Source: an uncultured Verrucomicrobiae bacterium (lineage in GTDB: Bacteria > Verrucomicrobiota > Verrucomicrobiia > Limisphaerales > UBA11358). From it: 64,000 nt of DNA. The notes beneath the pieces were generated by a model that saw only the letters and a list, made by a program, of their open reading frames with translations, made no database searches and was not told the origin of the DNA. Each line of letters opens with the position of its first letter. Position 1 is the first letter of the stretch. This document shows, piece after piece, positions 8,082-62,754 of the stretch. Both the position numbers and the translations under genes were made by a program. Where the stretch lies: contig CAVXLF010000023.1 in the NCBI GenBank assembly GCA_963762585.1, positions 85,035 to 149,034 of the forward strand. Direction: 5' to 3'.

Positions 8082-9425
8082 TCATACCGTGGGTGCAGGA
8101 TGTTGCGGCTCCGCCGGTGCAAGTTGTGACTCTGCCGTTCCCGTCGGCTGCGGCAGGTGCCTTTTGATCAGGTGCATTACCGCCTTGACGGCCAATTCAA
8201 TCGGCAGGAACGGCTTGGCAATGAGATCGTCGCCGCCGCTCAAAACCCCCTTGGCGCGGCTTTCAAAATCATTGTGGACGGTGACGTAGATCACGGGGGT
8301 TTTCTCATAGCCGGGAATGGCCCGCAATTTCCGGCAAAACTCGTAACCGTTCATCAGCGGCATTTCGATATCGAGCAGAATCAGCTCGTAATTTGTTTCT
8401 TTCAGCAGCTTCAAGGCCTCCAGCGGATCTTTCACGCCGTTGGCCTGGAGATGTGCCCGCTGGAGCGCGAAGATGGCGACGCGATTGGTGACCGCGTCGT
8501 CGTCCACAATCATGACCTTGCTGACCAACGGCTCTTCGACCGATGGCTCGCGCGCCAGGGCAAAAAGCACTCCCATAAAATCCAGGGTCATGGCGATTGT
8601 GCGCAGGCTGGACGGCGTGATGAGGTCCGGCGTGCGTTGCAGCTCGAACAACAGGGCTTCGAATACACCACTGAGCAGTGCGATGTAATGGAACCTGGCC
8701 AGGCCGGTAATGGCGGTGACGAAGTGCACCTTGCGATAAAGAGCGTCGAGCCGCTCCCCGCGCGTCTTTAGGTCCGGACTCTTTCTGAACGCCCGATAAA
8801 GCTCGCGCAAATCCACAATGATGGAGGGCGCGTCCCTGAGAAAATCCTGGCGGCTCTTGATGCTGGAACTCATTTCCACGGCTTCCAGATCGTGCTCGGC
8901 CTGCTTCAACCCGGCGGGGGCCGTGGGCGACTCGATTTTTCTGGCGGCCGTCGGATCCTTGATCAGCAGGTCATTCGCGACGGCAATCAATTTGGCGGGG
9001 TTACACTCGGCCTTGATGACGGTTTGCTGGACGCCGATCTCAATGGCGGCTTGTGCCAGCTCATCCATGAACGCATTGGTGAAGATGGCGACCGGTATGG
9101 AGCGCAAACGGGCTTGTGAACGGAGGAATTTCAACACGTCCACTCCCGAAAGTTTCGGCATCATCAAATCCAACACCACGAGGTCAGGCTTGTCCGCCTG
9201 CAACAGTTCCAGCGCATTCAAGCCATCCGTGGCGGTGGCCACGCTGAAACCATATTGAGCGAGCCTTTTTCCATAAATGGCCCGGATCACTGCGTCATCA
9301 TCCACCAGAAGAATTTTTTTCGGCAGTTGCCCGGGAGGCCCTGCCTCGGGCGACTCCACCGGCGCAGCCGGCGGCGTGGTGGTTCGCGTCTCGTTCACCG
9401 GCGCTTTGTTTCTCATCGTTTTCAT
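8082..9425 (-). CDS. Dual-receiver response regulator with central helical (tentatively Hpt-like) domain
   Basis: REC1 KILLVDDD...DLVVLDLMMPKLSG...; REC2 KVMIVDDD...ELILLDIEMPLMNG...DDLIAKP; central segment RKVHFVTAITGLARF resembles the H-x-x-K-G-S-A Hpt helix. ATG 9425 (MKTMRNK) preferred over 9506. Confidence 0.8.
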   Translation of the reverse strand: MKTMRNKAPVNETRTTTPPAAPVESPEAGPPGQLPKKILLVDDDAVIRAIYGKRLAQYGFSVATATDGLNALELLQADKPDLVVLDLMMPKLSGVDVLKFLRSQARLRSIPVAIFTNAFMDELAQAAIEIGVQQTVIKAECNPAKLIAVANDLLIKDPTAARKIESPTAPAGLKQAEHDLEAVEMSSSIKSRQDFLRDAPSIIVDLRELYRAFRKSPDLKTRGERLDALYRKVHFVTAITGLARFHYIALLSGVFEALLFELQRTPDLITPSSLRTIAMTLDFMGVLFALAREPSVEEPLVSKVMIVDDDAVTNRVAIFALQRAHLQANGVKDPLEALKLLKETNYELILLDIEMPLMNGYEFCRKLRAIPGYEKTPVIYVTVHNDFESRAKGVLSGGDDLIAKPFLPIELAVKAVMHLIKRHLPQPTGTAESQLAPAEPQHPAPTV

Positions 9426-9870: not shown

Positions 9871-10710
9871 TCAAGCCCATTTTCGCCGCCAGGAGTCTGG
9901 GGTTTCGCCGTTGGCACGCAACGTCCGCAGACTCAAGGCATCGTGGCGCTTTGCCAGCCGCTCACCCGATTCGTCGCACAGCAGGGGGCAGTGAAAAAAC
10001 GCCGGAGGCTTGAGGCCGAGCGCGTGGTACAGCAAAATTTGTCGGGCCGTGCTGGCCAGCAGATCCGCGCCGCGCACCACCTCGGTGATCCCCATCGCCG
10101 CGTCGTCCACCACGCAGGCCAGTTGATACGCCGGAACGTCATCGTGCCGCCAGACGACAAAATCGCCGAAATGCGTGCCGGCGATGAACTGTTGCGGCCC
10201 CTGATTTCCGTCGGTGAACGAAATGGTTTTGCCGTCGGGAACCCGGAAACGCCAGGAGAATTTTCGATTCACGATTTCGGATTCGCGGTTTTGCCGGCAG
10301 GTCCCCGGATAAATTGATTCACCGTTTTCCAGGTGCGGGGCGGCCGCGGCCTGCTGGATGTCCTTGCGTGAACAGGTGCAGGGGTAAATGAACCCGCCCA
10401 GGCGCAATTTCTCCAGTGCGGCGCGATAGAGTTTCATCCGCTCGCTTTGGTTGTAAGGGGCAAAAGGTCCGCCGCAGTCCGGGCCTTCCTGCCATTCAAA
10501 ACCAAACCAGAGCAGGTCTTCAATCATGGCCGGGACGAATTCCATTTTGAAACGCGTGGAATCCAGATCTTCGTTTCGCAAAACCAGGGCGCCGCCGTTC
10601 GCCCGCGCGCGTTCTTGCGCCGTCCAAAACGTCCGCGCATGGCCCAGATGCAGATAACCCGTCGGCGACGGCGCGAGCCGGCCACGATACGATTTTTCAG
10701 AACGGTTCAT
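9871..10710 (-). CDS. gluQ: Glutamyl-Q tRNA(Asp) synthetase
   Basis: 279 aa truncated GluRS paralog: RGRLAPSPTGYLHLGHARTF, LRNEDLD, YPCTCSR, YPGTCR, no anticodon-binding domain. Confidence 0.85.
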   Translation of the reverse strand: MNRSEKSYRGRLAPSPTGYLHLGHARTFWTAQERARANGGALVLRNEDLDSTRFKMEFVPAMIEDLLWFGFEWQEGPDCGGPFAPYNQSERMKLYRAALEKLRLGGFIYPCTCSRKDIQQAAAAPHLENGESIYPGTCRQNRESEIVNRKFSWRFRVPDGKTISFTDGNQGPQQFIAGTHFGDFVVWRHDDVPAYQLACVVDDAAMGITEVVRGADLLASTARQILLYHALGLKPPAFFHCPLLCDESGERLAKRHDALSLRTLRANGETPDSWRRKWA

Positions 10711-21058: not shown

Positions 21059-21079
21059 GCGGACAGCCTAAATAAAAAA

Positions 21080-21107
21080 ACCAAAATCCAAAGCCCAAAG
21101 TCCAATG
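21080..21107. repeat. Tandem heptamer array CCAAA(A/G)N x4
   Basis: CCAAAAT CCAAAGC CCAAAGT CCAATGG, between acpS stop and CNNM-1 start. Confidence 0.7.
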
Positions 21108-21142
21108 GCGATTTAAATCCTTCGGCGGGGAGGTGGGATTCG

Positions 21143-21520
21143 TCAACCTGCCAACACCGCCGTGGCCGCCGCGTAGTTTTGGGTGTGGCTCAGGCTGATG
21201 AACAATTGTTTCGCGCGGCGTGACGCGAACAATGTCTCTCCCTTGCCGTGCAGCACCACGAACGGTTCGCCGGATTCCTTGCGCCGGATTTCCATGTCCT
21301 GCCAGCCCAGGGCTGCGCCGATGCCGGTGCCGAACGCCTTGGAAATCGCCTCCTTGGCCGCGAACCGTGCCGCGATGAACGGCGCCGGGTTTTTGTGCGA
21401 TTGGCAGTAGGCAATTTCATCCGGCAGCAAAATCCGGCTCACAAACCGCTCGCCGAACTTTTCGTAGGATGCGCCGATGCGCGTCACCTCGATGATGTCT
21501 ATGCCCGTGCCCAAAATCAT
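21143..21520 (-). CDS. acpS: Holo-ACP synthase (4'-phosphopantetheinyl transferase)
   Basis: 125 aa; GTGIDIIEV..., RFAAKEAISKAFGTG, ISLSHT motifs. Confidence 0.9.
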   Translation of the reverse strand: MILGTGIDIIEVTRIGASYEKFGERFVSRILLPDEIAYCQSHKNPAPFIAARFAAKEAISKAFGTGIGAALGWQDMEIRRKESGEPFVVLHGKGETLFASRRAKQLFISLSHTQNYAAATAVLAG

Positions 21521-21524
21521 TTAT

Positions 21525-21552
21525 GATTTACGATTTACGATTTACGATTGAC
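21525..21552. repeat. Tandem heptamer array GATTTAC x4
   Basis: GATTTAC GATTTAC GATTTAC GATTGAC, 5 nt upstream of acpS ATG. Confidence 0.8.
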
Positions 21553-21592
21553 GCGCAAGCAAACTCGGCTGGGCAAAGCGGCTGCGGTAAAA

Positions 21593-21663: not shown

Positions 21664-22449
21664 TTACCCGCGACAATTTTTCATCAAGCGCAGCATCTCC
21701 TTGACCGCGGTTTTGAGGCCAGTCATGACCGCCCGGCTGACGATGCTGTGGCCGATGTTCAATTCCACCAGGTGCGGCACGCGATGGAGTAGCGGCAGGT
21801 TTTCGTAATTCAATCCGTGTCCCGCATTCACCCGCAGGCCGAGCGCGTGCGCCTGCTCCGCGGCGGCGATGAGGCGGTCGAGTTCTGATAAATCGGTAGG
21901 GACGGCGCGCTGCGCCGTCCGGTCATCGCCGCGCGATGACCCTACCTTTTTATAAAATTCCTCCGCAAACGCACCGGTGTGCAATTCGACAAACTGGCTT
22001 CCGACCCGCGCGCTGGCCTCAATCTGCTCTTTATCCGGTGCAATGAACAAACTCACCTCGATGCCGGCATCGTTCATTTTCTGGCGTGTTTTGGTCAGAG
22101 CTTTTTCACTCGCGGCCACGTCCAGTCCGCCCTCGGTGGTCACTTCCGACCGGCGTTCGGGCACGAGGCAGATGATATCCGGTTTTAATTTCAGCGCGAT
22201 GGCGATGATGTCCGGCAGGTTGGCCATTTCGAGGTTGAGCCGGGTTTTGACGGTTTTCCGCAATTTCCAGATATCGCGGTCCTGGATGTGCCGGCGGTCT
22301 TCGCGCAGGTGCGCGGTGATGCCGTGCGCGCCGGCGGCCTCGCAAATCCGCGCGGCCTCGACCGGGTCCGGTTCACCAAATCCACGGTTGCGATAACGCG
22401 CTTCGCGGATGGTCGCGACGTGGTCAATATTGACACCCAGTTTCAACAT
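21664..22449 (-). CDS. pdxJ: Pyridoxine 5'-phosphate synthase (carries in-frame repeat insertion)
   Basis: ATG 22449: [60 protein letters not shown]. Confidence 0.92.
21897..21946. repeat. 50-nt double-hairpin REP-like element inside pdxJ coding sequence
   Basis: TAGGGACGGCGCGCTGCGCCGTCCGGTCATCGCCGCGCGATGACCCTACC; translated on the minus strand as [18 protein letters not shown]. Confidence 0.85.
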
Positions 22450-27044: not shown

Positions 27045-27062
27045 AAGACACGAAAGACACGA
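27045..27062. repeat. Tandem 9-mer AAGACACGA x2
   Basis: AAGACACGAAAGACACGA in the divergent HAD-Nudix / rluE spacer. Confidence 0.55.
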
Positions 27063-27124
27063 AAAGATTTTTCTCCGTTCCCGGTCCGCAAAGGAACGTG
27101 AAAATCGGGGGCAATGGCGGTTTT

Positions 27125-27159
27125 GAAAACTTGAAACTTGAAACCTGACACTGGAAACT
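27125..27159. repeat. Tandem heptamer array (T/G)GAAACT x5
   Basis: GAAAACT TGAAACT TGAAACC TGACACT GGAAACT, ends 7 nt before the rluE-like GTG. Confidence 0.75.
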
Positions 27160-39947: not shown

Positions 39948-42224
39948 GTGAGTCTTCACCGCGACCAACTTTTCGCGCCACTGAAACAATTCTTCGGCTT
40001 CAGTTCCTTCCGTCCGTTGCAGGAGGAAATCATTCGCGACGCGCTCGCGGGCAAGGACGTTTTCGCCGTGCTGCCCACCGGCGGCGGCAAATCGCTCTGC
40101 TTCCAGCTTCCCGCGCTCGTGCAACCCGGACTCACCGTTGTCGTCTCGCCGCTCATCGCGCTGATGAAGGACCAGGTGGACGCGCTACAGGCGGCGGGCG
40201 TGGCGGCGACATTTTTGAATTCATCGCTCGCCGCCGGCGAATCGCGTCCGCGCCTGCGCGGCTTGCACCAGGGCGAGTTCCGGTTGCTCTACGTCGCGCC
40301 GGAGCGGTTAATGTTGTCCGGTTTTCTTGACGACCTGAAGAAATGGAACGTGAACCTGTTCGCGATTGACGAGGCGCATTGCATCAGCGAGTGGGGACAC
40401 GATTTCCGCCCGGAATACCGGCAATTGCAGACGATGCGCGGAATTTTTCCAACCGTGCCGATGATGGCGCTCACGGCCACGGCCACCGAACGCGTGCGCG
40501 GCGACATTGTCCGGCAGCTGCATCTGAAGGATCCCGCGTGCTACGTCGCCAGTTTCAACCGCCCGAACCTGACTTACCGCGTCGCGGCGAAGTCAGGCGC
40601 TTATGACCAGATTCTTTCGTACGTGCAGGCGCGGCCGAACGAAAGCGGCATCATTTACGTGCAGGCGCGCAAAACGGCGGACAGCCTGGCGGCCAAACTT
40701 TCCGCCGACGGCGTGAAGGCGCTGCCGTATCACGCGGGCATGACCCCCGGTGACCGGACGAAAAGCCAGGAGGCATTTCTTCGCGACGAGGCGCGCGTGA
40801 TTTGCGCGACCATCGCCTTTGGCATGGGCATCAACAAGCCGAACGTGCGTTTCGTGATTCACTACGACCTGCCGAAGAACATCGAAGGCTATTATCAGGA
40901 AACGGGCCGCGCCGGCCGTGACGGTCTGCCCGGCGAATGTCTGCTGTTGTTCAGCCCCGGCGACCGGGTCAAGCAGATGCGGTTCATTGACGAAAAACCA
41001 AGTCCGCAGGAGCGCGAAATCGCCCGCGCCCAACTGGAACAGATGATTCACTACGCCGAGATCGCCACCTGCCGCCGTGAATTTCTGCTGGGATATTTCG
41101 GGGAGAAATTTAATCCAAATGAGGTTGTCGGACAAGGTGGGGCGCGTCACTCCGTGCGCGCCGACTTTGCAACATTGGACAACGGCGCGCACGGAGTGAC
41201 GCGCCCGACCGAACCCGTGAATTGTGCCGGCTGCGACAACTGCCTCTCGCCGCGCGCGACCTGGGACGGCACGCTGGCGGCGCAAAAATTTCTTTCGTGT
41301 GTCTATCGCATCCGTGAGAAAAGCGGTTTCGGCGTCGGCATTCAGCACGTGGTCGAGGTGCTCTGCGGTGCGGAAACGGAAAAAGTCCGCAAGTTCGGCC
41401 ACCACACACTTTCGACCTACAACATTGGCGACGGACATGCGCGCGCCGAGTGGAGCGCGATTGGACGTGAACTGGTGCGGCTCGGTTTGCTGTTTCAAAA
41501 CGCGGAGAAGTTCAACATCGTCGAGCTGACCGACGCCGGTCACACGGCGCTGAAATCGCGGCAGAAAATCACGTTGACCAAACCGGTCGCTCCGACCGAA
41601 CCGGCGAAGCATCGCGCCGGCGAAATTGCCTGTGACGAGGCGTTGTTCGAGAAATTGCGCGCGCTGCGGAAACAGCTTGCCGACGCGCGCGCCGTGCCGC
41701 CTTACATTATTTTCTCCGACGTGTCGCTGCGGCAGATGGCGCGGTTTTATCCCGCGAACGAAAAGGATTTTTCGCGCATCAGCGGCGTGGGTGAAAGGAA
41801 GCTGCGCGAATTCGGCGAAGCTTTCCTGGGTGAAATTGCGGCGCATGTGCAGACGAACCCGCGCCAGGTTTTTGCGGATGATTTCCCGGCGGATGGAATG
41901 CCGTCCGCGCCGGTGCCGCGCCGGTCACGGCTGACCGACAGCGTGCGCGAGACGCTGCATTTTTTCCAGCAAGGCCGGGCGGTTTCCGAAATTGCAAAAA
42001 TTCGCGGCTTCAAAGACAGCACGATTTACAGTCATCTTGAAGAAGCCATGCTCGCGGGCGAATCGGTTGATGTGCATTCATTGGTTTCAGCCGAAGCCAG
42101 GCGCGACATCGCCGCAGCCTTCGTCCGGCACGGTTTCGGCAACCTCACCGGCGTGGTCGAATCGCTCGGCGGGAAATACGGTTACGGCGAATGCCGCGTC
42201 GTCCGCGCCGCGTTGCAAAGGTAG
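39948..42224 (+). CDS. recQ: ATP-dependent DNA helicase RecQ (helicase-RQC-HRDC plus C-terminal HTH-like tail)
   Basis: [91 protein letters not shown], CxxCDNC, HRDC ([15 protein letters not shown]). No in-frame ATG; GTG 39948 proposed. The track ORF start 39540 overlaps gyrB. Confidence 0.92.
41136..41210. mobile_element. REPIN (inverted REP doublet, 28+19+28 nt) inserted in frame in recQ
   Basis: GGTGGGGCGCGTCACTCCGTGCGCGCCG (41136-41163) and CGGCGCGCACGGAGTGACGCGCCCGACC (41183-41210); each is 27/28 identical to the arms flanking the RAYT gene at 59.3-59.9 kb. Confidence 0.85.
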
Positions 42225-42268
42225 GGACGCCGCGCTGCGGCGTCACCGCCCGCGAAATAGCGGGCGGA
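42221..42268. repeat. GTAGGG-headed hairpin pair supplying the recQ stop codon
   Basis: GTAGGGACGCCGC-GCT-GCGGCGTC then CCGCCCGC-GAAATA-GCGGGCGG; TAG at 42222-42224 is the recQ stop. Confidence 0.75.
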
Positions 42269-42378
42269 ACGTGTGTCGTACACGATTTATTGCGCCGCTG
42301 CGGCGCCGCGCTCCATCCCTGCCGCATTTGAATCCAAATCAACTCGCTTTTTGGAGCGGTGAACCTTATTTTCACCAA

Positions 42379-45234
<2,856 letters not shown>

Positions 45235-45387: not shown

Positions 45388-45447
45388 AAGGCGTATTCGG
45401 GTCACTTTGTGTCACAAGTTCGGGACTCGTGCAACTCGTCCGTCCGA

Positions 45448-45477
45448 ATCTGTGTTCATCTGTGTGAATCTGTGGCC
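45448..45477. repeat. Tandem 10-mer ATCTGTGNNN x3
   Basis: ATCTGTGTTC ATCTGTGTGA ATCTGTGGCC, just downstream of the 1106-aa gene stop. Confidence 0.65.
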
Positions 45478-45491
45478 AAATCCGGGGTTGA

Positions 45492-48812
<3,321 letters not shown>

Positions 48813-48841
48813 GGCTTAAACGTGGAGAGGCTGCGATGGAA

Positions 48842-48935
48842 AACATCCAACATCCAACATCCAACATCCAATTCCCAATGCCGGCGGTGCAGGCATCATT
48901 GGATGTTCGGCGTTCGATGTTGGATGTTGGATGTT
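48842..48935. repeat. Inverted pair of heptamer arrays (AACATCC xN ... GGATGTT xN)
   Basis: AACATCC x4 perfect plus 2 degenerate (48842-48883); GGATGTT-type x5, 3 perfect (48901-48935); the arms are reverse complements. Confidence 0.85.
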
Positions 48936-48959
48936 CACTTGGCGGTAGGAAACCGTTCC

Positions 48960-49874
48960 TCACGTTTGCGCCAGCAGTTCGACGAGCAGCGTGAGGACCT
49001 CGTCCCGGTCTTTGCCGTTCAGCGCCAGCGCCAGTTGCGCCGTGAGCAGGCCGTATTGAACGCCGATGTCGTAACGGCGGCCCTGCAATTCGCACGCGAG
49101 ATAGCGTTCGCTTTCGGCCACCCTGGCCAGGGCATCGGCAAGATGCACGCCGCCGGTGTTGCCCGCAGCCGTCACGAGTTGTTGCAGAATGTCCATCACG
49201 CCGGACGTCAAAACATGCATGCCGAAAAAACACAGGTAATGGCCGGCGCGCAGGCCGGGCACGATGAGTTTTTGTTCGGCCACCGTCGGCGTGGGTTTTT
49301 CCACGACGCGATCCACCTGATACAAACCGGCCCGGCCCGGCAGCCGCCGCGCGCCCACCGCGCCGTAGTAGGGCAGCTTGCTTTCGTGTGTGGGTTGCAC
49401 CGCGGAAACCGCGCAGGCTTCGGCGGAGGCCAGCTCCAGCAATTGCCGGGCGCAGGAATTTTTATTTTTGCTGACGTACAGGTGGTCGCCCACCAAAAGC
49501 ATGAACGATTCGTCGCCGGTAAAGTTCCGCGCACAGGCCACGGCATGGCCGTAGCCCAACGGCGCGGGTTGCTCGATGAATTGGACGCGATTGGCGTGCG
49601 GCCCGGCGGCGGCGGCAAAGGCGCCCTCGTCACCGGGGGAAATCACCAGCCCGATTTCCTCAATGCCGGCCTGCAACACCTCCTCGAGCAGGATGGTGAG
49701 GGCCGATTTGGACTGGCCGTCGCGGTCCATCAACGATTGCAACGGCAGGTTTCGCTGATTGCGACCGGCGGCGGTAATGACAGCTTTGCGGATTTTCACG
49801 GCTGGACGCCCGGCGGGGCAGGTGGTGTTTTCTTCATGACTGGCAAAACGCGAGCATAAGGGCCGCGCGGCCAT
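48960..49874 (-). CDS. GalU-like sugar-1-phosphate nucleotidyltransferase with degenerate N-terminal motif
   Basis: [18 protein letters not shown] (in place of GalU-type AAGLGTRFLP), [12 protein letters not shown]. Start is ATG 49874 or GTG 49799. Confidence 0.65.
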
Positions 49875-54783: not shown

Positions 54784-54821
54784 AAAATGGCACACTCACC
54801 GAGGGCCGTTGTAGAATTCAG

Positions 54822-54854
54822 ACCGGAAGTCAGCAGCTGACTTCCGGTTTTTTG
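54822..54854 (+). terminator. Rho-independent terminator after eno
   Basis: ACCGGAAGTCAGC-A-GCTGACTTCCGGT followed by TTTTTTGTTT. Confidence 0.8.
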
Positions 54855-54874
54855 TTTGAACCATGGGAAAATCA

Positions 54875-59293: not shown

Positions 59294-59930
59294 GGTAGGG
59301 CGCGTCACTCCGTGCGCGCCGTCGTTGTTCGTGCGGCGGGCAGGGGACTGCCCGCCCTACCCAAACGTGGGTGACGGTCGGTTATTCGGGCGATAGACCC
59401 ATGCCCAGTCTTCCGCGCGCTCGCACAATCCTTTACGGACAGGATTCATCAGAATGTAGCTGGTCTTCTCCGCCAATTCATTATGATCGCGCAGACGGTG
59501 ATCGAAGAAATCGCGTTGCCAATGCACATCGTGTTTTAAAGCCACATATTTCTTCCAATTTTTCATCACCGTTTCAATTCCTGGTTCGCGCGGGAACGCG
59601 AGGAGGGCATGCAAATGATCCGGCATGAGCAGGCACAGCCGACAATGCCAGATAAGTTTCTCATGGTTGTATTTCATCGCCGCCAACACAGCATCGCCGG
59701 TTCCGGCCTGGCATAAGTGATTTCTTCCCGGCGGCATGCATTTGATCGTGATGAAGAACCAACTTCCCTCAGCCACCCACTGCGGAATTGTGTGCGGCAG
59801 CTTTTTGCGGACAGGCAAGTCCATTAAGTGAAACGCAACCGAGGCCAACCGTGAAAGTTGGGCTCCGTAAGTCGTCTATGCGCCTTTAGTATTTTCGAAC
59901 AACGGCGCGCACGGAGTGACGCGCCCTACC
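59294..59930 (-). mobile_element. RAYT unit: tyrosine transposase gene bracketed by perfect 28-bp inverted REPs
   Basis: GGTAGGGCGCGTCACTCCGTGCGCGCCG at 59294-59321 and its exact reverse complement at 59903-59930. An additional GTAGGG-headed hairpin (59335-59362, minus orientation) supplies the RAYT stop. Confidence 0.85.
59357..59824 (-). CDS. REP-associated tyrosine transposase (IS200/IS605 Y1 superfamily)
   Basis: GSWFFITIKC, LLMPDHLHALL (HUH), WQRDFFDHRLRD, YILMNPVRKGL (catalytic Tyr), collinear with E. coli-type RAYT. ATG 59824 preferred over TTG 59848. Confidence 0.85.
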   Translation of the reverse strand: MDLPVRKKLPHTIPQWVAEGSWFFITIKCMPPGRNHLCQAGTGDAVLAAMKYNHEKLIWHCRLCLLMPDHLHALLAFPREPGIETVMKNWKKYVALKHDVHWQRDFFDHRLRDHNELAEKTSYILMNPVRKGLCERAEDWAWVYRPNNRPSPTFG

Positions 59931-61952: not shown

Positions 61953-62387
61953 GGCGTTGTCGTATTTGACCGAAAGGCTGACGGAAAGATCGTGGAACTC
62001 GACCCCGCGCTTTTCGATGCTGGCGAGACGAGAATCAAGGGCATTGCGGCCATGCCGGCAGGGTAGCGCCGCTTGGGCAGATTGTCAGTGGCAAAATCGA
62101 CGATCAGCGGCCGCAACCCTTTGGGGGTGTTCCGTTTTGTACCTTCCGGCTTGGCCTGATTTGTGCTGGATGAGAGGCGTGAAGTTTGTCGTACGTAAGA
62201 TCAATCGAAGCAACATCTATCATTTGTTGAACACCATCATTCCCATCAATCACAAACAGAAAGCCGAATCCGATGCCTTGGGCATTGTGATTATCGTTGG
62301 ATTGATTGTTGGGTTGGTGTGCCTGGTCCGCCTGGTTTTGAATTGCACACACTGATTTCAGGACACTGAATTAGTGAGTGGACACAA

Positions 62388-62657
62388 TCAAATCCCCGTT
62401 TCGGGAAACCGTTCCCGAATGCGGCGGCGCACGTGTTCCTCGTCATCCGGGTGATAACGGCGGCGGGGGATAAAGCGGCGAACCGCGTCCAGCAATTCCA
62501 GCCAGTCTTCCAGCGGCGGTTCCTCCACCCGCTGCCACTGGTCGTAGCGCTTCTCGCGCTGGAAGAAAATCCACTCCCGCCCGACCCGTTGCGCGTAAAC
62601 CTGCAGCTTGACTCCGTCGTCGGTGACCCGCTTCCAACTGATTTCGGCTTTTGGCAT
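62388..62657 (-). CDS. Hypothetical 89-aa charged protein
   Basis: ORF with ATG start 9 nt from the heptamer array; no recognised motif. Confidence 0.35.
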   Translation of the reverse strand: MPKAEISWKRVTDDGVKLQVYAQRVGREWIFFQREKRYDQWQRVEEPPLEDWLELLDAVRRFIPRRRYHPDDEEHVRRRIRERFPETGI

Positions 62658-62665
62658 GGTTCAGG

Positions 62666-62754
62666 GTGACATGTGACGCGTGACACGTGACATGATTTCG
62701 CGTTCGCCCGTCCACCGGGTTTTCCTGTCACCCGTCACTTGTCACCCGTCACTT
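62666..62754. repeat. Inverted pair of heptamer arrays (GTGACNN x4 ... GTCACNN x4)
   Basis: GTGACAT GTGACGC GTGACAC GTGACAT (62666-62693), 33-nt spacer, GTCACCC GTCACTT GTCACCC GTCACTT (62727-62754). Confidence 0.85.

Follow-up and report, generated by a model that had tools for sequence, protein, structure and literature searches.

A palindromic pair of heptamer arrays in an operon spacer of an uncultured Verrucomicrobia bacterium is one copy of a dispersed repeat family

Why should a long palindrome, built from two facing arrays of tandem heptamers, lie between two co-directional genes of a conserved operon? The question is raised by positions 48842-48935 of a 64-kb stretch of contig CAVXLF010000023.1 from an uncultured Verrucomicrobiae bacterium (the whole stretch is hereafter called the window), where a 94-bp element with the unit AACATCC sits inside a 147-nt intercistronic gap. 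The results of our analysis indicate that this element is one copy of a dispersed family of palindromes of about 100 bp in subdivision-3 Verrucomicrobia (Limisphaerales/Pedosphaera-like), and that it is not a free-running microsatellite but a family copy with a fixed five-unit arm. With a probability of about one half, we consider it to be a palindromic repeat akin to repetitive extragenic palindromes (REP) and to their hairpin-forming doublets (REPIN), which forms a long intercistronic RNA hairpin tolerated within operons.

The earlier note on this DNA, made from the sequence alone, had described four AACATCC units plus two degenerate ones that face five units of GGATGTT type, located between co-directional genes and capable of forming a long interrupted hairpin, a description that our analysis confirms in each of its parts. 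Direct reading of the sequence gives four perfect AACATCC units at 48842-48869, followed by the degenerate AATTCCC and AATGCCG, and places the heptamer units proper of the opposite arm at 48901-48935. Both arrays are recovered by Tandem Repeats Finder (TRF), with 4.3 copies (100%) and 5.3 copies (80%), and an inverted-repeat search finds arms of 39 nt that are 82% complementary across a spacer of 16 nt, forming the longest inverted repeat of the whole 64-kb window. The element, to which no strand is assigned, consists of arm A (48842-48880; AACATCC x4, AATTCCC and AATG), which becomes the 3' hairpin arm in minus-strand mRNA, a variable centre or loop of 16 nt with some self-pairing (48881-48896, from the inverted-repeat search and the fold), and arm B (48897-48935; CATT, GGATGTT, CGGCGTT, CGATGTT, GGATGTT and GGATGTT), which becomes the 5' hairpin arm.

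Both neighbouring genes are on the minus strand, and the gap between them measures exactly 147 nt (48813-48959). The upstream gene encodes a GalU-like protein of 304 aa with the NTP_transferase domain (48960-49874), its stop codon being 24 nt from the start of the hairpin, while the downstream gene encodes a protein of 1106 aa with a C-terminal UDPGP domain (45492-48812), its ATG following 29 nt after the end of the hairpin. On the transcribed strand, the RNA of the gap folds at -64.7 kcal/mol, as compared with -39.7 +/- 4.2 kcal/mol for 200 shuffled sequences, none of which was as stable (0/200, z -6.0); the plus strand of the gap folds at -61.2 kcal/mol (z -4.0). Since block-shuffled sequence contains no period-7 array beyond about three copies, chance is very unlikely to have produced two such arrays in inverted orientation, and the paired heptamer palindrome is a real, non-random feature.

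The element is not alone. When metagenomes were scanned for (AACATCC)3, at least 120 loci matched; among the matches listed, combined with the related genomes described below, the order (AACATCC)n-centre-(GGATGTT)n occurs 37 times and the reverse order 7 times, and these 37 copies fall into 26 different flank clusters, with two copies lying 3.6 kb apart on a single contig (L155). Aligning 29 size-selected copies (85-115 bp), we obtained a usual length of about 97-104 bp, mostly with five units per arm and with the consensus AACATCC; an invariant AAC recurs every 7 nt along one arm, as does GTT along the opposite one. The copies begin with a purine-rich lead-in, and CCAATG/CATTGG closes their arms about a variable centre whose length is about 15-25 nt, a few copies exceeding this. 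Several variant units are recurrent (AACGCCC/G, AACACCS, AACATCG and AACATTC), and different loci carry variant units in one order, with AACGCCS followed by AACATCC and then AATG. A covariance model built from 28 family copies, named R1, scores the window element at 102.8 bits, a value that is partly circular because the window copy is among the 28. Sister families include long CCAAA-type elements at four loci (L026, L102, L104 and L119) and the further unit types AACCTTG, AATGACG, AATGCGG and ACGATTT; the window itself contains one AACATCC-unit copy and two paired elements with other units.

For comparison with relatives we used the window plus 80 loci found with the 1106-aa protein (L001-L080), a set of 1.36 Mb in which most of the 80 orthologous loci come from Verrucomicrobia metagenome-assembled genomes (MAGs) of Limisphaerales, Pedosphaera and others. 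The GalU-like gene was detected directly upstream of the gene for the 1106-aa protein in 29 of the 39 relatives checked, and the gap between the two genes is 1-45 nt in 19 of the 29 relatives with a measurable gap (native values include 1, 2, 6, 7, 8, 10, 11, 13 and so on up to 45 nt). The relative L006, with 93% aa identity, has a gap of 45 nt from which the element is absent, while the element is present in L001, L004 and L005, whose gaps measure 137-151 nt, comparable to the 147 nt of the window. Because the orthologous gap is so short in 19 relatives and is empty in L006, the element is an insertion, and its flanking spacers sum to about the length of the empty site. Other relatives present further states of the same gap: L002 retains one arm together with other inserted sequence, L007, L009 and L024 have GC-rich REP-like hairpins in place of the element, and the gap of L015 is occupied by a 9-mer array (GTTAAATGG, upstream of position 10001). 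Six of the loci used here (L004, L005, L020, L026, L069 and L071) carry labels of Acidiferrales, Limnocylindrales, Acidoferrum, Haliangiales, Thermoflexales or Bifidobacteriaceae together with a Verrucomicrobia-type 1106-aa gene that has 69-92% identity to the window gene; their contigs are probably mis-binned in MAGs.

Comparable operon-internal positions are found for other copies of the family, which lie between the genes for PBP2 and RodA (mrdA-rodA), between those for an HlyD-type protein and an AcrB-type pump in both orders (acrA-acrB type), beside the gene for the type II secretion ATPase (T2SS-E) and upstream of that for thymidylate kinase. According to rough gene calls, which gave both neighbours for 21 copies, 18 of these are flanked by co-directional genes, 3 by divergent and none by convergent ones, and the hairpin mostly starts 1-24 nt past the upstream stop codon. 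The baseline for gene pairs is 74% co-directional, 15% convergent and 11% divergent, so that 0/21 convergent against 15% expected has a marginal P of about 0.04; given this marginal value, and since the copies are not all independent, we do not rely on the depletion of convergent spacers.

A paired element of a sister unit type is also operon-internal in the window itself, where it fills the spacer between atpD and atpC (793-863; ACGTTTC/GAAACGT units, fold z -5.2) and ends 4-5 nt before the ATG of atpC; this site, absent from the earlier note, has a counterpart of the same ACGTTTC type at L117 (9784-9856). The two elements allowed us to follow unit number at strain level. The number of units is the same in two independent strain-level contigs with an identical GalU-like protein for the AACATCC element, and in seven independent contigs with an identical AtpC for the atpD-atpC element (strain-level contigs L201-L209), one strain-level contig having four point changes only. 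A hypervariable or phase-variable simple sequence repeat, considered as a candidate, was therefore rejected on the basis of the identical unit numbers across these 2 + 7 contigs.

The earlier note had also called for a census of tandem 7-mers, and when this was run on the 1.36 Mb of relatives, period 7 proved to be dominant. TRF finds 43 period-7 arrays of at least four copies, compared with 8 arrays of period 3 and at most 5 of any other period, and for 17 of 63 heptamer arrays, about a quarter, an inverted partner lies no more than 150 nt away. The copy numbers of period-7 arrays have a bimodal distribution: one class, chance-like, lies at 2-2.5 copies and a distinct second mode at 4-5.5, with almost nothing above 6, whereas for other periods (5, 6, 8, 9 and 10 among them) the distribution falls monotonically and shuffled sequence yields nothing above 3. 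This bimodal distribution does not fit simple slippage. As to orientation, unpaired AACATCC arrays are unbiased with respect to nearby starts and stops. Separately, all 16 AACATCC arrays inside called open reading frames (ORFs) of L081-L200 have AACATCC on the coding strand (peptide NIQHPTS) and 0/16 have GGATGTT there (peptide GCWMLDV), according to rough gene calls; two of the 16 (L007 and L024) are probably arrays of the 5' untranslated region.

Heptamer arrays of the same size also occur within a protein-coding sequence. A perfect CGGCAAT x5.1 array (43740-43775, plus strand) lies in frame in a gcvP-like ORF (41992-45234, plus strand) and encodes 12 residues of the interdomain linker of glycine dehydrogenase. 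At the same linker position, the L004 orthologue has a different five-unit array, GGACTTT (22097-22130), encoding PKTLDFRLRTLDF, while L005 has ordinary sequence of similar length without any array and L006 an apparently decayed CGGCAAT-like stretch. The linker arrays look like replacement rather than simple insertion.

How, then, could the palindrome behave in its operon? Lying inside a transcription unit, the element is transcribed and must fold upon itself into a stem of about 40 bp, with -55 to -65 kcal/mol. The best explanation that we can offer is that a REP/REPIN-like element entered a conserved operon of two genes (GalU-like gene followed by the 1106-aa gene) at its natively short spacer, with the 'junk-or-domesticated' behaviour of that type: it colonises intercistronic spacers, where it is retained, and is gained, lost or disrupted among close relatives, sharing this niche with the GC-rich REP-like hairpins. 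REP hairpins shield upstream mRNA from 3' exonucleases, and long perfect duplexes are cut by RNase III, by which cistrons are set apart both in phage T7 and in a number of bacterial operons. On this analogy, the element would most likely act as a passive intercistronic RNA structure, namely as a barrier to 3' exonucleases and/or as a cleavage site for a double-strand-specific nuclease of RNase III type, which would uncouple the stability and expression of the two cistrons without stopping transcription; alternatively, it would be merely tolerated. The upstream product is needed in excess in the case of ATP synthase beta over epsilon (atpD over atpC) and of the membrane-fusion protein over the AcrB-type pump, and this fits the uncoupling of cistrons, even if the evidence is anecdotal.

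Several points weigh against this REP/REPIN-like reading or limit its reach. The mechanism of mobility finds no trace at the borders of the family copies, which show no consistent direct repeat indicative of target-site duplication, and the variable centre is unlike that of a classical miniature inverted-repeat transposable element (MITE). In the 1.36 Mb of related genomes, R1 finds only five full copies of this unit type, four of which are orthologous (window, L001, L004 and L005), the fifth being in L043. Of 23 copies, 14 fold better as the sense than as the antisense strand, the difference averaging -1.9 kcal/mol (p 0.19), and the strand bias in G-U pairs is mixed in 12 elements with other units. 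Covariation is weak, since at variable positions of the unit broken pairs (CC/GG) and compensated ones (GC for CG) are about equally frequent. At orthologous sites a whole arm is sometimes homogenised to a variant unit, and the second arm follows in L005 and L155 (AACATTC/GAATGTT) but not in L114. Pairing is thus kept only loosely, and may be maintained by conversion, weak selection or both. With such weak covariation and a sense fold that is not significantly better, we cannot demonstrate selection on RNA structure, and the hairpin may have no function. As for a role in RNase III cleavage or in stabilisation, we infer it purely from the length of the stem, from REP elements and from the phage T7 sites. 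Finally, simple selfish spread explains neither why AAC should be invariant with a period of 7 nt nor why the arm has a fixed length of five units.

These last two features bear upon the main rival explanation, that of a protein-binding array, in which each arm would provide five 7-nt sites for a protein coating single-stranded RNA or DNA, or else attaching to the DNA duplex, and the bound protein would govern the forming or melting of the hairpin or cruciform. Candidates are cold-shock-domain (CSD) proteins, RNA chaperones and antiterminators with a footprint of 6-7 nt, and nucleoid proteins like IHF or HU. Besides the AAC (GTT) that is invariant at 7-nt period while other positions vary, the fixed number of units per arm would agree with a row of binding sites, as would the size of heptamer arrays in general (4-5.5 units, bimodal unlike other periods). 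In addition, AACAUCC, AACACCC, AACAACC and CCAAUG match heptamer ligands of the YB-1 CSD (aaCAUCu, aaCACCu, aaCAACu and gCCAAUc; PMC12767080) and the units fit the AACAUC consensus of FRGY and the CAUC/CACC consensus of YB-1 (PMC3458536), while binding of IHF/HU has been proposed for equivalent pairs in Geobacter (PMC2700814) and of S1, Csp or Csr for the heptamer arrays beside start codons in Beggiatoa (PMC4679880). The CSD motifs just cited are however eukaryotic. Bacterial Csp proteins favour sites rich in U/T. The candidate sites would be sequestered in the hairpin form, and with respect to the direction of transcription neither the paired copies nor the single arrays are biased towards one strand. 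Moreover, the other paired families of the window have unrelated units (ACGTTTC and GTGAC), so that one sequence-specific factor cannot serve all families. On balance a protein-binding array appears rather unlikely to us. A related idea, the titration of CsrA, for which GGAUGU presumably matches the SELEX-derived core, was set aside, its GGA being buried in the stem and other families being without GGA. The palindrome has also been compared with an integron recombination site of attC type, the earlier note having listed a recombination site among the possible roles. The consensus core sites of attC are RYYYAAC (inverse core) and GTTRRRY (core), within palindromes of 57-141 bp. ATCCAAC and GTTGGAT, rotations of our unit, match these core sites in attC order, the polarity is as in attC and the site lies between co-directional genes near the upstream stop codon, but the match, noticed post hoc, amounts to only about 10 bits, the units adjoin one another with neither the spacing of R/L boxes nor extrahelical bases, and the other paired families do not fit the consensus. 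Given that the flanking genes form a conserved housekeeping operon (29/39 relatives) instead of mobile cassettes, that no integrase is evident and that no Rfam family reaches threshold on the locus, we find an attC-type site barely credible.

A different proposal of the earlier note, that of a Rho-independent terminator or attenuator, would have the hairpin and the GUUUUCC on the mRNA strand set the expression ratio of the two genes. The hairpin is indeed very stable and stands just past a stop codon, the usual place of terminators; it is followed by UUUU in the window copy and by good U-tracts in several other copies (L103, CCGUUUUUUUG; L155, 6181-6282; L114), and the need for an excess of upstream product in several gene pairs might be connected with it. 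Yet when we counted T residues in the 12 nt past the stem of 23 oriented copies, there were 4.65 on the sense and 4.78 on the antisense strand (p 0.77), and the A-rich/T-rich flanks of the copies turned out to be a symmetric extension of the palindrome; the window copy is trailed by UUUU only, two of these U's pairing with the 5' AA of the stem. The tight operons in which copies are found, with native spacers of 1-45 nt, leave only 4-30 nt for a new promoter, convergent spacers contain none of the 21 copies (the marginal depletion reported above), and the canonical intrinsic terminator of the window (54820-54860, plus strand; 14-bp GC-rich stem, 3-nt loop, T-tract TTTTTTGTTT) looks quite different. 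Because of the lack of U-tail bias combined with sites inside operons, termination is not supported as a general role; it seems to us an unlikely account of the element, even if a few copies (L103 and L155) could terminate. At the opposite end of the range of functional claims stands a plain microsatellite resembling the short tandemly repeated repetitive (STRR) sequences, which would have arisen by independent slippage, with its partner arm made by local template switching, and would have neither family nor function, except perhaps as a hypermutable contingency locus. This proposal can draw upon the heptamer arrays of many different units that are common in related genomes, the homogenised arms at orthologous sites (AACATCG in L114, AACATTC in L155 and AACATCC in L171) and the differing arrays in one gcvP linker across sister genomes. 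It is nevertheless very improbable in view of the ordered variant units and fixed five-unit length common to arms of different loci, the unit numbers that are identical in strain-level contigs (two for the element and seven for atpD-atpC), the copy-number peak at 4-5 units that is not geometric and the strongly polar arm order (37 to 7 among the matches listed).

A leader peptide or small ORF starting from a loop-proximal AUG was also tried and rejected, for this AUG is present on only about half of the strands and the ends of the ORFs are inconsistent. The ORF is open in the window and in L001, L004 and L005; none of the frames of (GGATGTT)n contains a stop codon, and all three encode one cyclic peptide.

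The quantised size of heptamer arrays and the differing five-unit arrays at one gcvP linker position hint at a generating process other than slippage. We may contemplate, as a distinctly improbable but suggestive idea, that arrays of fixed size (4-5.5 units, about 35 nt) are written by a dedicated process. Such a process might consist in the reiterative copying of a 7-nt template during repair, or in conversion, and could overwrite about 35 nt at a time, in spacers and in protein linkers alike; its palindromic product would be the inverted five-plus-five elements. These might in addition be put to use as rows of CSD sites of AACAUC type, by which the hairpin would become conditional.

The remaining repeats of the window can be described in relation to the paired elements. 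That a matching architecture with another unit is present at 62666-62754 had been pointed out in the earlier note and is supported by TRF and by folding (z -3.2): this hairpin has GTGAC-type units (NNGTGAC/GTCACNN), overlaps the stop codon of ispF (62735-62737) and ends about 8 nt before the ATG of the next ORF. The latter, a candidate gene (62291-62659, minus strand), has 89-122 aa depending on the start codon chosen, and is without Pfam match. Among unpaired arrays, ATTTACG x5 (21519-21553, minus strand) abuts the start codon of acpS (ATG at 21520) and AAACTTG x4.7 (27127-27159, plus strand) ends 6 nt before the start of a plus-strand ORF (27166). Similar five-unit arrays are found in L007 (48-78) and L024 (4036-4072), so that unpaired arrays end 0-9 nt before start codons in all four cases; L007 and L024, in front of an orthologous gene, have different units (AACATTC and AACATCG, respectively). 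By eye, no Shine-Dalgarno-like sequence is seen at these start-codon-adjacent arrays, which recall the cases of Beggiatoa and Nostoc. A CCAAA-type heptamer array (21076-21105, minus strand) occupies the spacer from acpS to the CNNM/CorC gene; the region 21076-21145 was considered as a decayed paired copy, but it does not fold (z +1.5) and the array is therefore classed as unpaired.

Repeats of other kinds are present too. The GC-rich REP-like palindromes at 41136-41210 (arms of 28 nt, 96% complementary) and 59294-59361 have the arm GGTGGGGCGCGTCACTCCGTGCGCGCCG in common, and constitute a second, conventional hairpin repeat family of the same genome, to which the GC-rich hairpins in the gap of L007, L009 and L024 are related. 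A tandem 10-mer (GAATCTGTGT x2.9) lies between convergent genes at 45446-45474 and a tandem 9-mer (AAGACACGA x2.2) in a spacer at 27045-27064, while in L025 a CACGGAT-type array, inverted and repeating at intervals of about 10 nt, lies at about 9100-9240. Searching the whole window against Rfam gave no match at gathering score, the locus 48842-48935 attracting only generic miRNA-precursor hairpin models below threshold, and a tRNA search of the window found none.

In its wider significance, the element is a new phylum and a new unit for a kind of repeat already described and unexplained. It extends inverted pairs of short heptamer arrays inside operons from Proteobacteria to Verrucomicrobia, and adds to earlier reports the fixed five-unit arms with a conserved triplet per 7 nt, the strongly polar arm order, the clean insertion into operon spacers of 1-45 nt, the lack of a terminator signature, the strain-level stability and the bimodal sizes of heptamer arrays. 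The excess of heptamer repeats in bacteria has been a minor puzzle since 2007 (as cited in PMC4692102), and it can usefully be studied in a family that has many dated insertions and whose hosts are soil bacteria, uncultured but well sampled. What remains most intriguing is the quantised size of the heptamer arrays along with the different five-unit arrays at one protein-linker position. For annotation, such elements should be masked or labelled, and not taken as terminators, small RNAs or small ORFs.

How does the element compare with known systems? It resembles Rho-independent terminators in having a stable stem-loop soon after a stop codon and, in some copies, a U-run, but differs from them in its stem of about 40 bp of moderate GC, its long loop, its lack of sense U-tract bias and its operon-internal position. 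The features of MITEs are missing, as there is no target-site duplication and the interior is variable; of attC sites, only the order of core sites is found, in a low-information match recognized post hoc, and not the R/L boxes or the cassette and integrase context. Closer is the likeness to REP, bacterial interspersed mosaic elements (BIME) and REPIN, which equally are extragenic, often operon-internal, and form inverted doublets with conserved arms, variable spacer and long hairpin, with differences in presence and absence between relatives. The REP unit is a short GC-rich palindrome with a conserved GTAG head that is mobilised by REP-associated tyrosine transposases (RAYT), whereas the arms of the present element are non-palindromic tandem heptamers without GTAG.

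Other tandem heptamers offer partial parallels. The analogy with cyanobacterial STRR sequences, drawn in the earlier note, holds insofar as both are tandem heptanucleotide arrays, with an enrichment in intergenic DNA that is also seen in Nostoc, and not beyond this, since arrays there are mostly direct, with few inverted pairs in Nostoc, and hosts and units are different. To our knowledge, AACATCC is not among the defined STRR units. Some of the Nostoc heptamers lie beside start codons and are suspected of regulatory effects (preprint 10.1101/2022.06.06.494920). In Beggiatoaceae, the heptamer TAACTGA occurs in 2-6 copies, mostly in intergenic DNA and often ending a few nt from a start codon (PMC4679880), thereby resembling the unpaired arrays of the window at 21519 and 27127; in contrast to our element, it is a single unit in fixed orientation to the downstream gene, with one inverted pair among 170 sets (PMC4679880).

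The paired inverted layout itself, which the earlier note took to be undescribed, has been reported in both Xanthomonas (PMC4692102) and Geobacter (PMC2700814). A literature query on heptanucleotide repeats in Verrucomicrobia retrieved nothing. Genomes of Xanthomonas have 70-75 convergent pairs of GGGAATC arrays, mostly of about 4 units and 89-93% intergenic, the repeats lying mostly between co-directional ORFs at an average of 28 nt from the upstream ORF and usually preserving their type, though not their length, between species (Rehm et al. 2015, PMC4692102). They belong to another phylum and have a single G-rich unit, studied as a former of G-quadruplexes (PMC4692102), whereas AACATCC has no notable potential for such structures and several unrelated units coexist in one verrucomicrobial genome. 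The 'global regulator binding sites' of Geobacter metallireducens, classes 1-3, are multicopy pairs on opposite strands at variable distance, and class 3 consists of five tandem heptanucleotides (MTYCTGA) in 8 pairs, one of which lies between proB and proA, the equivalent spacer of the sister species containing a different repeat (Aklujkar et al. 2009, PMC2700814). Their classes 1 and 2 differ from the present family in being octamers and nonamers, the sites are interpreted as DNA sites of IHF/HU, and insertion sequences lie a set distance away from class 1 sites (PMC2700814); a function is established by neither the Xanthomonas (PMC4692102) nor the Geobacter (PMC2700814) paper. The architectural features that we take as defining this Xanthomonas/Geobacter type are all present in the element: arrays of about 4-5 units, the window copy and most of the 29 aligned copies having five in each arm; convergent arrays on opposite strands around a variable spacer, of 16 nt in the window, with 37 copies in one order against 7 in the other among the matches listed; and an intergenic position between co-directional genes near the end of the upstream gene, as found, by rough gene calls, for 18 of 21 copies at 1-24 nt.

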